Of a stretch of 34,380 nucleotides of DNA, positions 2,546 through 34,380 are shown in pieces. Position 1 is the first letter of the stretch; every line of letters starts with the position of its first letter. The stretch is from Candidatus Omnitrophota bacterium. GTDB lineage: Bacteria; Omnitrophota; Gorgyraeia; JAGLLT01. The DNA is taken from the NCBI GenBank assembly GCA_023140385.1, contig JAGLLT010000039.1, forward strand, positions 1 to 34,380, written 5' to 3'. The notes beneath the pieces were generated by a model. The model searched no databases, was not told the origin of the DNA, and saw only the letters and a program-made list of their open reading frames with translations. A program made the position numbers and the translations under genes.

Positions 2546-3031
2546 ATGACAGAAGAAAAGAACGAGCAGCAAAATGCTGAAGAAACACCGGAAGTAAAAG
2601 AACAGGAAGTAAAAGAAGTACAGCCGGCGCCGGCTGAAGAAACAAAGCCTGAGGCGGAAGAAGTCAAAGCTGAAGAAGTCAAACCGGCAGAGCCGGCAGA
2701 AGAAATAAAGCCCGAAGAAAAAACTGAAGAAAAACCTTCTGAAGAAAAGAAAGAAGAACCAAAAAAAGAAGAACCGTCAGCCGAACCTGTAGCAGAGGAG
2801 AAAAAGGAAGAAGCACAGCCCGCGCAGGAAGCTCCTAAAAAAGAGGAGCCCAAGCCGGTAGCACCCGCCAAACCGGCAGATGAGAAAAAAGGAAAAGGCC
2901 GGAACAAAATCAATAAGATGACGCTGAATGAAGTTGAGAAGAAAATTAGCGAGACCAAAGATAAGATGGGCAATTTTACTTCAAAGTACGCTCAAGCCCT
3001 GCTTAAGAGAAGAGACAAACTAAAAAACTAA
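2546..3031 (+). CDS. Hypothetical protein: long E/K/P/A-rich disordered region plus a ~45-aa basic helical C-terminal domain
   Basis: AAGGA RBS upstream. Low-complexity repeats (EEVK, KPAE, EEKK), then KINKMTLNEVEKKISETKDKMGNFTSKYAQALLKRRDKL. Confidence 0.75.
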   Translation: MTEEKNEQQNAEETPEVKEQEVKEVQPAPAEETKPEAEEVKAEEVKPAEPAEEIKPEEKTEEKPSEEKKEEPKKEEPSAEPVAEEKKEEAQPAQEAPKKEEPKPVAPAKPADEKKGKGRNKINKMTLNEVEKKISETKDKMGNFTSKYAQALLKRRDKLKN

Positions 3032-14549: not shown

Positions 14550-15614
14550 ATGTTTTTAAAGACGCTACAAAAAATAATTTTTCTGGTATTATTTTTTACA
14601 TCTACTTGCTTCTCATCCTCCGCTGATGTTATCTACCTTAATAATGGCAATAAAATGGAGGGTATTATTCTTGAAGATAAGCCAGAAGAGATTATTATTC
14701 AGTTAAATATCGGCACGGTGGTTTTTAGTTATAATCAAATTGAGAAAGTTGAAAAATGGTCTGAAGATGAAAATCAGTGTCTTAAAAAAGGGTGGTTGAG
14801 TAAGAAGGAAAAACTTAAAAAAGAAATTGAAGAAATTAAAAATACCCAACCGGCTAAAACCCAAATAACTGAAAAATCTGAGAAAATTCAGGAGGAAAAG
14901 GTTAAAAAAAAAGAAGAATATGTAATTGAGCCTGTAGTAACTCCGCCTCTAAGGCGCAAAAAAGTTTCTTCCAAACATACTCGGTATAAAAACCTATTAA
15001 GTAAAACTACTCTTATGAAGCTCAAGAAAGATCCCGATCAAACCTACTATATCTATTTGCCTAAAAAATATTCTCCGTCTAAAGAATGGCCTCTTTTTAT
15101 TGGGATCCACGGTCTTGGTGCCGATGGCAAACAGTCAATAGATCTGTGGAGAGAATTTGCTGACGGAGAAGGTTTTATTTTAGTTTGCCCTAATTTTGGA
15201 GATGGCTACGCACTGTTAAGGAATAATGCTGATAAAAGAATGAAAGATATTATTAAAGAAGTTGGAAAGAACTTTAAGATTGATAAAGAAAAAATCCTTA
15301 TGGCTGGTTTTTCTGGAGGCGCGCAGTTCCTTAGCAGATTTGTCTTTAGGCATCGGAATATTGTTAGAGCTGTTTCTATAATATCGGGAAGATGGTTTGA
15401 CTTATCAGTAATAAGAAAATCAGCCAAAACCAAGTTTTTGATAACAGTAGGAGAAAATGATACGGAAAGAATAGGCGACTCAAGGGAGTTTGCCAAACGC
15501 CTTAAAGATAAAGGATGTAAAGTAAAATTCAAAATTTGTCCTGGAGCTGGTCACTGGGTTTGTGATGAAGCTAAAAAGTTGACTATGGATTTATTTAGGC
15601 AGATAAAATTATGA
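14550..15614 (+). CDS. Secreted alpha/beta hydrolase (esterase/peptidase-like) with an N-terminal small beta domain and a charged linker
   Basis: Signal peptide ending SSA/DVIYLNNGNKMEGII; YYIYLP, IHGLG, nucleophile elbow AGFSGGAQ, GEND (Asp), GAGH (His); AT-rich. Confidence 0.8.
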   Translation: MFLKTLQKIIFLVLFFTSTCFSSSADVIYLNNGNKMEGIILEDKPEEIIIQLNIGTVVFSYNQIEKVEKWSEDENQCLKKGWLSKKEKLKKEIEEIKNTQPAKTQITEKSEKIQEEKVKKKEEYVIEPVVTPPLRRKKVSSKHTRYKNLLSKTTLMKLKKDPDQTYYIYLPKKYSPSKEWPLFIGIHGLGADGKQSIDLWREFADGEGFILVCPNFGDGYALLRNNADKRMKDIIKEVGKNFKIDKEKILMAGFSGGAQFLSRFVFRHRNIVRAVSIISGRWFDLSVIRKSAKTKFLITVGENDTERIGDSREFAKRLKDKGCKVKFKICPGAGHWVCDEAKKLTMDLFRQIKL

Positions 15615-29834: not shown

Positions 29835-30530
29835 ATGGGAGATCTAAAGACTGTTGTTTGCCGTTTGATTTTAACTATGGTGCTTAGCGGATTGATAGGA
29901 GTAGAAAGAGAAACGCACGGGCGCGCGGCGGGCCTGCGAACGCATATTTTAGTTGGTGTTGGTTCTACCCTGATACTACTCACTTCAATATATATGGCTG
30001 AGACAATCATTGGAGGGGCCTCAGTTGACCCCGGCAGAGTAGCGGCCGGTGTAATTACGGGTATTGGATTTATAGGCGCCGGTACCATTATAAGATTTCG
30101 CGCCTCGGTTAAAGGATTGACGACAGCGGCGAGTTTGTGGGCGACGGCAGGTGTGGGCCTCGCGGTCGGCTGCGGTTTTTATACGGGTGCTTTCGCGGCC
30201 ACCTTTTTAATATTGTTTTCCCTGGTTTTTCTGGGACGTTTTGAAAAAAGGATAATTAAGAAGATCAGATGCAGGTCTCTTGAAGTAAAAACATCTGCCA
30301 GCGCCGAACAGCTTCATCGCATAAGGGCTATTCTTTCTGATTATAATGTTCGTATAAAAGATCTGGAAATAGATAAATTGGAGGAGCCCGAAATGATAAA
30401 ATTGATTGTTGATGTAGAATTATCCGGTGGGCGTGAGGATGAACAGATAATTAATGATCTCATGAAGATTGAAGGAGTGCGAAAAGCCGGTTGGCTTAAA
30501 AAGGAGAGGGAGGTGAAAGAAAATGTTTAA
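29835..30530 (+). CDS. MgtC/SapB-family membrane protein with a C-terminal ACT-like domain
   Basis: IGVERE, AGLRTHILV, DPGRVAAGVITGIGFIGAG, GLTTAASLW. Confidence 0.92.
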   Translation: MGDLKTVVCRLILTMVLSGLIGVERETHGRAAGLRTHILVGVGSTLILLTSIYMAETIIGGASVDPGRVAAGVITGIGFIGAGTIIRFRASVKGLTTAASLWATAGVGLAVGCGFYTGAFAATFLILFSLVFLGRFEKRIIKKIRCRSLEVKTSASAEQLHRIRAILSDYNVRIKDLEIDKLEEPEMIKLIVDVELSGGREDEQIINDLMKIEGVRKAGWLKKEREVKENV

Positions 30531-31068
30531 GCATCCTAAAAAAGATACAGATGAAGACAGGCACAATGTTCTTGATATGGATGCCAGTATGCAGGGGAGC
30601 TTAGTATTTAAAGACCATGTAGATTTAAAGATTAGCGGCAAGTTTGAAGGAAGCCTGGAGGTTAAAGGCAGTCTGACTGTCGGAGAGATGGCGGTAGTCA
30701 ACGCGGAAATAAAAGGCGAGGAGATTACCATTTCAGGGAAAGTGATGGGTGACATTAGCGCTACTTCCAGATTGAGTCTTACGGGAACAGCCAGAATAAT
30801 AGGTGACATTAGTACACCGGTTTTGGAGGTGCAGGAGGGGGCGGTTTTGCAGGGCAATTGCCAGATGCTTACTCAGGAGCAAAAGGCGGGCAGTATTAAA
30901 AAGCAGGCTCTTAACTGCCAGCAGCTCGCGGAATATCTGGAGGTAGGTTTGAATGAGGTTGATGAATGGATTAAAAATCATAAGATTCCCGCTTTTAAGG
31001 AAAATAACGAATGGAAGTTTGATAAGGCCAAGATAGATGCTTGGGTGGCCACGGAAAAAATTAAATAG
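30523..31068 (+). CDS. Bactofilin (polymer-forming beta-helix) fused to a C-terminal HTH_17/excisionase-like domain
   Basis: aa ~16-115 are bactofilin repeats (LKISGKFEGSL, LTVGEMAVVNAEI, ISGKVMGDI, ARIIGDI, VQEGAVLQGNC). aa ~129-176 read LAEYLEV...WIKNHKIPAFK....WKF...IDAW. Confidence 0.85.
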   Translation: MFKHPKKDTDEDRHNVLDMDASMQGSLVFKDHVDLKISGKFEGSLEVKGSLTVGEMAVVNAEIKGEEITISGKVMGDISATSRLSLTGTARIIGDISTPVLEVQEGAVLQGNCQMLTQEQKAGSIKKQALNCQQLAEYLEVGLNEVDEWIKNHKIPAFKENNEWKFDKAKIDAWVATEKIK

Positions 31069-31116
31069 GGCTGTGAAGTTGAAACGGTTTAATTTTTAAT
31101 GTAAGGAAAAAGGGGA

Positions 31117-31458
31117 ATGCAGGAAAAACTGTTGAGCTTAAAGGCGGCGGCTGATTATCTGGGAATATCCGAAAAGAAACTCAAAGAGCTTTCTGATTAT
31201 GGAGTTATACCGGCATACAGAATTGCCGGTATCTATTTGCGTTTTAGACGAAGCCAGCTTCTGAATCTCAAAGATAAGATATCCGGTATACAAGCTCAAT
31301 ACGCTAAATACCAACAGGCACGGGTCGCCTATGAAGAAAAGACACCTTATGGTTTAGGTGACAGGCTGAAGGATTTTTGGCACTTTTACGATTTCTATAT
31401 TATCAGCCTTCTGCTTATTGTTATCATTTTAGCGATAATATTTCGCTATAACTTATGA
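31117..31458 (+). CDS. HTH_17/excisionase-like domain protein with a C-terminal transmembrane anchor
   Basis: LLSLKAAADYLGISEKKLKEL...IPAYRIAGIYLRFRRSQL; C-terminal DFWHFYDFY followed by IISLLLIVIILAIIF. Confidence 0.82.
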   Translation: MQEKLLSLKAAADYLGISEKKLKELSDYGVIPAYRIAGIYLRFRRSQLLNLKDKISGIQAQYAKYQQARVAYEEKTPYGLGDRLKDFWHFYDFYIISLLLIVIILAIIFRYNL

Positions 31459-33810: not shown

Positions 33811-34380
33811 GTGATTGATGATAGAAGGCTAATTGTAGATAGTATTAAAAGCACAGGCCTACTGGAGGACGGTCAGGTTCAAGAGGCTCTGGAGCTTCAG
33901 GCTAAAAGCCGGGAAAGATTAAGTTCACTTTTAGCCAGCTTAGGCTACATTTCAAATGAGGATATTGTTACCGCCCTTCCTTCACAAATCGGCCTTGTTC
34001 CCGTTGAGATAAAAGATAAAAAGATTAACAGCGAAACCGCTAAAATAATTTCCCCCGAAGTTGCCTATCAACACAGAGTTATGCCTCTGGAGCTTAACGG
34101 CGAAATCCTCACCATTGCTACAGATGACCCTCTGAATTTTCTTGCTATAGAAAACTTACAAAAGTTTGTTGGAATTAAGCTGAAGGTTGTTTTATCTTCC
34201 GAAGATGAGCTGTTGGCGCAGCAGAAAGTCCACTATGGGGAAAAACGGGAAAAAGAAAATGTTTTAGAGGGTGTGGTAGAGAGAATTGACGAAGAGAGTG
34301 ACTTTTATAAGGGGGGAGGAGAAAAAGGAATTGGTTATGTAGTTAGTGATGAGGATGCTCCGATTATTCGCCTGGTGAGT
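33811..34380 (+). CDS. PilB/GspE-family secretion/pilus ATPase, N-terminal part; truncated by the right edge and absent from the ORF track
   Basis: GTG at 33811 behind AAGGA, open for 190 codons: MIDDRRLIVDSIKSTGLLEDGQVQEALELQAKSRERLSSLLASLGYISNEDI...AYQHRVMPL...LTIATDDPLN...HYG...EDAPIIRLVS (MshEN-like/T2SSE_N domain plus the APII linker). Confidence 0.88.
   Translation, partial: MIDDRRLIVDSIKSTGLLEDGQVQEALELQAKSRERLSSLLASLGYISNEDIVTALPSQIGLVPVEIKDKKINSETAKIISPEVAYQHRVMPLELNGEILTIATDDPLNFLAIENLQKFVGIKLKVVLSSEDELLAQQKVHYGEKREKENVLEGVVERIDEESDFYKGGGEKGIGYVVSDEDAPIIRLVS

Follow-up and report, generated by a model that had tools for sequence, protein, structure and literature searches.

A bactofilin fused to a winged helix–turn–helix domain is paired with a predicted membrane-anchored winged-helix protein across the phylum Omnitrophota

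Introduction

In Myxococcus xanthus, the bactofilin scaffold of the BacNOP-PadC-ParAB system positions chromosome-segregation proteins (PMC5703909). The bactofilin BacA of Caulobacter crescentus needs a membrane-targeting sequence, MFSKQAKS, for its function, and PbpC, a bitopic client that binds the BacA polymer by its cytoplasmic N-terminal part, can replace this membrane peptide (PMC12448750). In Bacillus subtilis, the bactofilins BacE and BacF bind the helix–turn–helix (HTH) protein BacR, which they draw to the membrane and keep from binding DNA (PMC13649987), and RacA pairs with the DivIVA scaffold (PMC4914108). RocS of Streptococcus pneumoniae combines a winged HTH (wHTH) domain and a coiled coil with a membrane anchor at its C-terminus; it is regarded as a link that holds DNA at the membrane, and the type of its anchor can be exchanged without large loss of function (PMC11500499). 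In this study, we analyzed computationally a stretch of 34,380 nucleotides from a Candidatus Omnitrophota bacterium (contig JAGLLT010000039.1; hereafter the window), which is contig 33 of a 1.50-Mb genome assembled into 57 contigs and 92.7% complete, and we focused on two adjacent genes within it: gene 1, encoding a bactofilin with a C-terminal wHTH domain, and gene 2, encoding a predicted membrane-anchored protein with a wHTH domain of its own.

Bactofilins occur widely as scaffolds and, to our knowledge, all of their known clients are separate proteins. The point of interest here is that a bactofilin is fused to a DNA-binding-type fold, is paired with a membrane-anchored copy of that fold, and is kept in most of a phylum. 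The pair combines known kinds of component, namely bactofilin scaffolds and RacA/RocS-type tethers, and is not a new category. According to the original prediction, made from the DNA sequence of the window, no characterized bactofilin is known to be fused directly to a DNA-binding fold, and we found none described in the literature searched, in which we also found nothing on bactofilins in Omnitrophota; the supplements of a survey of 14,337 bactofilin homologues may list such fusions (PMC12448750).

Results

Architecture of gene 1 and gene 2

Both open reading frames (ORFs) lie on the forward strand with a spacing of 48 bp, exactly as originally described, and they comprise the following features (confidence of the AlphaFold2 models is given as the predicted local distance difference test, pLDDT).

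30523..31068, + strand: gene 1 (181 amino acids), bactofilin with a C-terminal winged HTH; ORF with Pfam matches to Bactofilin and HTH_17
30523..30567, + strand: N-terminal tail of gene 1, residues 1–15, MFKHPKKDTDEDRHN, basic then acidic; predicted disordered, pLDDT below 50 at residues 1–13
30568..30867, + strand: bactofilin β-helix core, residues 16–115; Pfam match, strands modeled with pLDDT 91–97
30868..30915, + strand: flexible linker, residues 116–131; pLDDT below 50 at residues 120–126, length 5–18 residues in the family
30916..31062, + strand: MerR/Xis-type winged HTH, residues 132–180; HTH_17 match, modeled as helix-helix-hairpin-helix
31117..31458, + strand: gene 2 (113 amino acids), predicted tail-anchored membrane protein with an N-terminal winged HTH; ORF with AAGGGG 5′ of the ATG
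31129..31263, + strand: MerR/Xis-type winged HTH, residues 5–49; HTH_17, 29.9 bits (cut-off 27)
31264..31371, + strand: basic helical stalk or linker, residues 50–85; neither sequence nor length conserved
31372..31398, + strand: juxtamembrane aromatic motif DFWHFYDFY, residues 86–94; family consensus DFxYFNDFY from the sequence alignment
31390..31452, + strand: predicted C-terminal transmembrane helix, residues 92–112; modeled helix with pLDDT 88–94

Residues 16–114 of gene 1 matched Pfam Bactofilin (PF04519/DUF583) with 84.7 bits (cut-off 27.9), and residues 133–177 matched HTH_17 (PF12728) with 36.2 bits (cut-off 27); the match to the NCBIfam “excise” domain (TIGR01764) was weak (30.2 bits, cut-off 28.8). 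Structure models were made using AlphaFold2 with family alignments, and the folds were compared using Foldseek. The model of gene 1 had a mean pLDDT of 84.6, and its core matched the Thermus thermophilus bactofilin (Protein Data Bank, PDB, code 6rib) with a target template modeling score (TM-score) of 0.89 and a root-mean-square deviation of 1.9 over 103 columns, as well as BacA (2n3d). Profile searches of the PDB likewise retrieved BacA (2n3d, 1.8e-11) and the T. thermophilus protein (6ria, 2.1e-9). The glycine ladder of the core was invariant across 60 gene 1 homologues, the sample that underlies all residue counts for gene 1 given below. Sequence match and right-handed β-helix fold thus agree in making gene 1 a bactofilin, and it is the sole PF04519 match of the genome.

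The original prediction had set the N-terminal tail of gene 1 beside the membrane-binding MF-x-K-type peptide of many bactofilins. The likeness holds for the protein of the window, which starts with MFKHPKK and so has Phe2 and lysines, but it does not extend to the family. Among 60 family tails, counted from unverified starts of the homologues, MF was present in 3, and 34 fitted a loose hydrophobic-plus-dibasic pattern. Many tails outside the window’s own family read MAKKK...EEKI, MRKRE, and similar, and likeness to the membrane-targeting sequence of bactofilins is confined to the window’s own family. Since the peptide is not conserved, attachment of gene 1 to the membrane in most of the family may depend on a partner.

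The AlphaFold2 model of the gene 1 HTH domain consists of helices at residues 132–138, 143–151, and 168–180 and strands at 158–160 and 163–167. Its Foldseek matches included the DNA complexes of RacA (5i44) and BldC (6ama/6amk), Pukovnik Xis (4j2n), and pSK1 Par (8csh), with target TM-scores of 0.58–0.75 and E-values all above 0.01. For the HTH domain of gene 2, profile searches of the PDB gave Pukovnik Xis (4j2n, 8.7e-6) and BldC (6amk, 1e-3); its top Foldseek match was the DNA-binding domain of RacA (5i44, E 5.7e-3), and the target TM-scores to BldC were 0.79–0.84. The two domains aligned with each other with an hhalign probability of 97%, and both have the order helix 1, helix 2, β-hairpin wing, and helix 3 (target TM-scores 0.58–0.84 overall). 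Foldseek E-values of both domains were all above 1e-3, which is usual for domains of about 50 residues, and the assignment therefore rests on sequence and fold together. In both respects, the two domains are winged helices of the Xis/BldC/RacA type, as anticipated.

In the AlphaFold2 model of gene 2 (mean pLDDT 74.3), the winged helix (residues 5–44) is followed by a long helix of low confidence (residues 45–73, pLDDT 57–63) and by helices at residues 80–90 and 92–112. The match to TIGR01764 was weak (27.7 bits). Over 61 gene 2 homologues, the sample used for all gene 2 counts, the linker was 13–54 residues long with a mean charge of +3.0. The aromatic motif that follows is the best-conserved part of the protein, exceeding its HTH domain: F87 and Y94 were invariant, and D86 and F93 were at least 90% conserved. 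It had no match among the families searched. The hydrophobic run of the window’s protein ends within four residues of the C-terminus, and in all 61 homologues such a run (median length 17) was followed by 0–7 residues; because so few residues follow it, gene 2 is predicted to be tail-anchored without a periplasmic domain. The order of HTH domain, linker, aromatic stretch, and membrane helix is thus as originally read, and gene 2 combines an N-terminal MerR-type wHTH with a C-terminal anchoring element, the arrangement of RocS/RacA/Par-type tethers.

Conservation of the pair and loss of gene 1

We surveyed 201 genomes sampled across Omnitrophota; strong and weak matches were counted by our own reading of the result tables, with strong defined as an E-value of 1e-35 or better for gene 1 and of 1e-20 or better for the gene 2 profile. 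Gene 1 was matched at 1e-3 or better in 188 of the 201 genomes, with 172 strong, 15 weak, and one intermediate match, and 13 genomes gave none. All the gene 1 matches listed (150 places) begin at about residue 20 or before it and reach at least residue 178, and so span both domains. The gene 2 profile matched 197 of the 201 genomes at 1e-5 or better and 184 strongly, and every genome with a strong gene 1 match also had a strong gene 2 match (172/172). Within the sample, no bactofilin-HTH protein without gene 2 was seen among the strong matches.

The locus was read in 61 different genomes, 20 of which belong to classes other than that of the window. In all 61, gene 1 was directly followed on the same strand by a gene 2 homologue at a distance of −32 to +237 bp, so the syntenic pairing that had been expected in relatives was found throughout, and the survey showed the architecture to be phylum-wide. 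The order in the window’s class was gatB, S41 protease, divergent polysaccharide deacetylase, tsaD, mgtC, gene 1, gene 2, and LarB-/LarC-like genes, whereas in another class gene 1 and gene 2 were followed by ACPS, YdjC, and SurE. Beyond the pair itself, no neighbor was common to both classes. Because the flanks differ between classes while the pair persists, the pair itself is the conserved unit.

The distribution of gene 1 is nested within that of gene 2. Gene 2 occurred without gene 1 in 12 genomes, of which two were explained by contig ends and one had the intermediate gene 1 score; the remaining nine, which are 94–100% complete, did not give a single Bactofilin match. A clean loss of gene 1 leaves mgtC and gene 2 as neighbors in genus g6, and tsaD directly precedes gene 2 in family f10. 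The genomes without gene 1 keep the wing, the aromatic motif, and the membrane helix of gene 2. The two-component scaffold first envisaged is therefore not an obligate unit: because nine near-complete genomes keep gene 2 without a bactofilin, gene 2 is an autonomous partner with a role independent of the bactofilin. The loci in G015, G033, G163, G087, and G109 are natural gene 1 knock-outs that could guide comparative work. A link between loss of gene 1 and loss of MreB was rejected, as MreB was kept in all five gene-1-less genomes tested. A weak bactofilin-like match with an internal TAG in genome G043 proved to be an unrelated β-helix stretch.

In public databases, the best 120 of 186 near-length matches of gene 1 all carried both Pfam domains (122–198 amino acids), and more distant representatives with 28–38% identity still had both. 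Among 1.84 billion representatives of 50% identity clusters, 16 matched at 1e-30 or better compared with 12,871 at the level of bactofilins in general, and the fused form is therefore a compact family. Named relatives and Atlas clusters of both proteins were all assigned to Omnitrophota/Omnitrophica or the “PVC group”, with most database members lacking a taxon. Both proteins have generic names in public databases, some of them “excisionase family DNA binding protein”.

Residues at the DNA-contact positions of the two winged helices

BldC of Streptomyces reads bases with Arg30, which has an equivalent in RacA, and the R30A substitution abolishes binding; Trp31 touches the phosphate backbone, and the head-to-tail interface formed on direct repeats includes Gly44 and Ile40 (PMC5859096). 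We projected these published DNA contacts onto both HTH domains via alignments and counted the residues found there.

In gene 1, position 148, the equivalent of Arg30, is occupied by an acidic residue in 53 of 60 homologues (E43/D10), and position 142, which corresponds to the helix N-cap Asp24, is acidic in 59 (E36/D23). The wing position 160 is also Glu or Asp in 53 (E42/D11), E140 is nearly invariant, and position 167 is likewise conserved as acidic. The wing is one residue shorter than those of gene 2 and BldC. The mean charge was −2.3 for the turn and recognition helix and −1.8 for the whole domain. W149 (59/60) aligns with Trp31, and the Arg48 position is basic in part of the family (K28/R9 of 60). 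As a set, the basic contacts of BldC (Lys26, Arg30, Lys33, His46, Arg47, and Arg48) are not retained in gene 1. Because conserved acidic residues replace DNA contacts of BldC and RacA, the gene 1 HTH domain does not look like a DNA reader, and the filament decorated with DNA-binding HTH domains that the original prediction had proposed appears doubtful.

Gene 2 presents a conserved basic wing (Y34, K/R35, G38, R42, F43, and R/K44; mean charge +2.0). R42, which aligns with BldC Arg48, was found in 61 of 61 homologues; G38 (59/61) and Y34 (58/61) align with Gly44 and Ile40; and basic residues occupy position 35 in 55, position 44 in 59, and position 45 in 50 of the 61. The position of BldC Arg47 is hydrophobic. 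These residues suggest that the gene 2 HTH domain could bind DNA through its wing together with the stalk, although this is not assured. The source genome contains five HTH_17 proteins, of which the three other than gene 1 and gene 2 are small, basic, and stand-alone.

Cytoskeletal and segregation genes of Omnitrophota

Omnitrophota are uncultured bacteria with very small cells. The source genome encodes parA, parB, MreB, and a canonical RodZ (HTH_25, 62 bits; RodZ_C, 47 bits) that adjoins ftsK elsewhere in the genome; since all of these are present, the pair replaces none of them. Accordingly, gene 2 was rejected as the cell’s RodZ, as it matches HTH_17 and not HTH_25 and has no periplasmic part, and a replacement of ParABS by the pair was rejected because parA and parB are both there.

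The source genome gave no match for the Tubulin or FtsZ_C families. None of 101 phylum genomes that are at least 90% complete matched the Tubulin family, and among 41 genomes of the class none reached the cut-off of the ftsZ equivalog TIGR00065; each FtsZ search was positive in 13 of 14 control genomes. Of the 101 phylum genomes searched, 100 have MreB. In the published accounts, FtsZ is reported only in “Omnitrophica OLB16” (PMC5147048) and dcw genes are called highly conserved in Ca. Omnitrophota (PMC12283558). These statements differ from our non-detection of FtsZ, which needs a proper check.

Discussion

A proposed cell-organization module of Omnitrophota

The pair is core to the phylum Omnitrophota and not a prophage relic, and we propose that it is a conserved cell-organization module. 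Because it sits among core genes and no integrase was found among the 32 other ORFs scanned, a housekeeping role in cell biology is far likelier than that of a prophage excisionase, as the original prediction had argued. For its mode of action, we tentatively favor a reading in which gene 2 tethers DNA to the membrane in the manner of RocS and RacA, and the bactofilin docks on gene 2 and organizes it via a degenerate HTH domain; we consider this account possible, if somewhat short of probable. We infer that gene 2, tail-anchored in the inner membrane, would hold its RacA/BldC-type winged helix in the cytoplasm on the basic stalk, and by analogy with RocS and RacA it would most likely attach nucleoid DNA to the membrane via the invariant basic wing and the stalk. 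Gene 1, the sole bactofilin, would polymerize without nucleotide and display a second winged helix on its flexible linker. This domain, with its DNA-reading surface turned acidic, would no longer read DNA; we infer that it docks on gene 2, either onto the basic wing or by extending a BldC-like head-to-tail array. The bactofilin polymer might thereby gather the gene 2 tethers on the membrane, set their position, or gate them.

Several observations weigh against this reading. The gene 1 HTH domain keeps basic residues in its wing and third helix (K154/R in 60/60, K/R168 in 59/60, and K/R165 in 37/60), and non-specific DNA contact by it is therefore conceivable. The recognition helix of gene 2 is variable and net acidic (mean charge −1.4), so that canonical reading of the major groove is not assured, and its Arg30 equivalent is basic in 31 of 61 homologues (K18/R13) versus acidic in 20 (E11/D9). 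Net charges of the two HTH domains did not co-vary (Spearman correlation of 0.10 over 61 pairs), which tells little for so few pairs of related sequences. Gene 2 has no conserved central coiled coil and no DUF536 match at E up to 0.1. A fusion of gene 1 and gene 2 into a single polypeptide was seen neither among the best 120 of 186 near-length matches nor in a search of longer proteins, although such an absence is weak evidence. A divergent bactofilin-HTH_17 lineage labeled “Omnitrophica WOR_2” (locus L089, 2501–3064) has no adjoining gene 2. Polymerization, membrane insertion, contact between the two proteins, and DNA binding by gene 2 are put forward as proposals, and a complex prediction for full-length gene 1 with residues 1–84 of gene 2, which scored 0.00 against a mark of 0.32 and was made without controls, carries no weight either way.

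Alternative explanations

In the original prediction, an HTH-decorated bactofilin filament and a membrane-inserted HTH protein either tether the nucleoid to the envelope or dock onto each other. In the tethering version both winged helices would bind DNA, and gene 1 would be comparable to a polymer carrying the DNA-binding domain of RacA or pSK1 Par. The superposition of the gene 1 HTH domain on the RacA–DNA and BldC–DNA structures, Xis, and pSK1 Par agrees with this, as do the near-invariant W149 at the place of the backbone-touching Trp31 and the basic residues kept at positions 154, 165, and 168; moreover, Par and RacA are described as pairing the same fold with oligomerizing domains for DNA positioning (PMC11500499). 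We nevertheless regard it as unlikely in view of the acidic residues clustered where gene 1 would be expected to face DNA (positions 140, 142, 148, and 160), its shortened wing, and its negative charge, which differs from the basic character of the three stand-alone HTH_17 proteins of the same genome. A further account does without DNA: the HTH_17 domains would be protein–protein adaptors and gene 2 a membrane anchor for the polymer, serving cell shape or division without FtsZ. RodZ, which uses an HTH domain to hold MreB, is a precedent for such a role. Both recognition helices are net acidic, HTH_17 is also fused to type II/IV secretion ATPases in Planctomycetota, and the phylum has MreB and no detected FtsZ. 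An external anchor would also make sense for a bactofilin family whose membrane peptide is not conserved, PbpC being able to replace that of BacA (PMC12448750). What makes this account improbable is that intact gene 2 persists in nine genomes without a bactofilin, and anchoring gene 1 therefore cannot be its sole role; in addition, R42 and G38 of gene 2 coincide with residues that BldC needs for DNA binding, and the genome already has a canonical RodZ.

BacR, encoded beside bacEF in B. subtilis (PMC13649987), provides the precedent for a switch in which one of the HTH domains acts as a transcription factor, such as an operon autoregulator, whose access to DNA is set by sequestration on the polymer or at the membrane. 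Here, gene 2 would be permanently inserted in the membrane and gene 1 is permanently fused to the bactofilin, so neither can relocate like BacR. Neither protein matched DUF4004 (E up to 0.1), genes and likely promoters on the upstream side vary from class to class, which speaks against a conserved operator, and promoter-like sites in the region were no more frequent than in shuffled sequence (9 versus a mean of 9.6); we judge such a switch very unlikely. An origin as excisionase-type genes left by a prophage or integrative element, to which the matches of both proteins to TIGR01764 and their excisionase names in databases could point, deserves practically no credence: the pair is conserved phylum-wide at a fixed housekeeping locus without the integrase or mobile-element association of an excisionase, no integrase occurs among the 32 window ORFs scanned, and the genome’s true excisionase, basic and stand-alone, adjoins a tyrosine integrase on another contig. 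Returning to the tether organized by a docked bactofilin, a more far-reaching version can be imagined. With MreB but no detectable FtsZ, Omnitrophota may use the bactofilin-wHTH polymer and gene 2 as a lineage-specific machine that holds the chromosome at a defined place on the membrane and in this way couples nucleoid position to FtsZ-independent division or polarity, the acidic pseudo-HTH acting as a DNA-mimicking switch that loads or releases the tether. This is speculative, and we think it decidedly unlikely.

Comparison with described systems

Among described proteins, RocS resembles gene 2 in being small, with an N-terminal MerR-type wHTH, a helical middle part, and a C-terminal anchor. 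As described (PMC11500499), however, the RocS anchor is an amphipathic helix that needs oligomerization, whereas that of gene 2 is predicted to be a true transmembrane helix; RocS has a coiled coil and DUF536, whereas gene 2 has an unconserved stalk, the aromatic motif, and no DUF536 match. RocS is not known to have a bactofilin partner. RacA, whose wHTH tops the structural matches of gene 2 and is one of the closest to the gene 1 HTH domain, offers in its partnership with DivIVA the example of a DNA-binding wHTH coupled to a self-assembling, membrane-associated scaffold (PMC4914108). RacA binds DivIVA via a coiled coil, whereas in the present locus a wHTH with an acidic DNA face is covalently fused to the bactofilin; moreover, RacA is sporulation-specific, whereas gene 1 and gene 2 are constitutive and phylum-wide. 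The gene for BacR (YhbD, DUF4004) also adjoins bactofilin genes, but BacR is described as a soluble protein with a DUF4004 C-terminal part that relocates to the nucleoid (PMC13649987), whereas here one HTH domain is fused and the other predicted to be membrane-inserted.

In M. xanthus, the separate adaptor PadC and ParB make the link to DNA (PMC5703909), whereas the DNA-binding-type fold is here part of the bactofilin itself. BacA shares its core fold with gene 1 and has a membrane client of the polymer, but it lacks an extra folded domain, a peptide of the MFSKQAKS type is not conserved in the gene 1 family, and its client is a cell-wall synthase (PMC12448750), in contrast to the HTH protein that is the candidate client here. 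BldC and Xis have the same small MerR-like wHTH without a dimerization helix, but BldC is a free transcription factor of 68 residues with a basic DNA face (PMC5859096), whereas gene 1 and gene 2 are not free and gene 1 lacks the key Arg. Par of the Staphylococcus aureus plasmid pSK1 likewise joins an N-terminal wHTH to a self-associating domain for DNA positioning by a single protein, but it is plasmid-borne, oligomerizes through a coiled coil, and binds centromere DNA with its DNA-binding domain (PMC11500499).

If the favored reading is true, the pair would constitute a minimal, compact link between cytoskeleton, membrane, and DNA, with parts that total fewer than 300 residues and are small enough to be reconstituted in vitro. 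It would also open up the cell biology of Omnitrophota, which have MreB and no detectable FtsZ in the genomes searched; the non-detection of FtsZ lends the bactofilin module extra interest, and no link to division is claimed. The acidic surface of the gene 1 HTH domain would, if true, illustrate clearly how a DNA-binding fold can be converted in nature into a module for docking or DNA mimicry.

Genomic surroundings and further observations

In the window, gene 1 and gene 2 are preceded by gatC, gatA, gatB, an S41 protease gene, tsaD, and mgtC and are followed by a PHO4 transporter gene and a PhoU-like gene. The stop codon of mgtC overlaps the start of gene 1 by 8 nucleotides, and a GGAGG motif lies about 10 nucleotides 5′ of that start. 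No terminator-like site was found on the + strand between mgtC, gene 1, gene 2, and the PHO4 gene. Judged from these signals, the region appears compatible with co-transcription. No integrase or recombinase family was found among the 32 other + strand ORFs of the window that were scanned. Five + strand ORFs of 135–354 amino acids had no Pfam match at 1e-5 (13–459, 790–1266, 1320–1724, 2546–3028, and 14550–15611), and an ORF that runs off the end of the window (33811–34380) begins with an MshEN domain.

The excisionase on contig 56 (L004) is a basic HTH_17 protein of 67 amino acids (positions 1489–1692), and it is followed by an ORF of 351 amino acids (1702–2757) that reads from its sequence as a tyrosine recombinase; the two appear to be the genuine Xis-integrase pair of the genome, in contrast to gene 1 and gene 2. 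The “Omnitrophica WOR_2” fusion has about 28% identity to gene 1 (via P0287). Its N-terminus, MKFFLKRKK, is far more like a membrane-targeting sequence than the gene 1 tail, and the next gene encodes a multi-pass membrane protein of 262 amino acids. The Planctomycetota proteins mentioned above form a cluster of 61 that combine a type II/IV secretion ATPase domain (T2SSE) with HTH_17.

Other bactofilin architectures were met in the database searches. The search of longer proteins returned a single 365-amino-acid fusion of thymidylate kinase and bactofilin, encoded on a contig of 1264 bp. In protein P0280 (253 amino acids), a bactofilin is joined to PilZ, which is known as a c-di-GMP-binding domain, and P0268 is a giant protein of 4767 amino acids in which 32 separate stretches match the bactofilin core.

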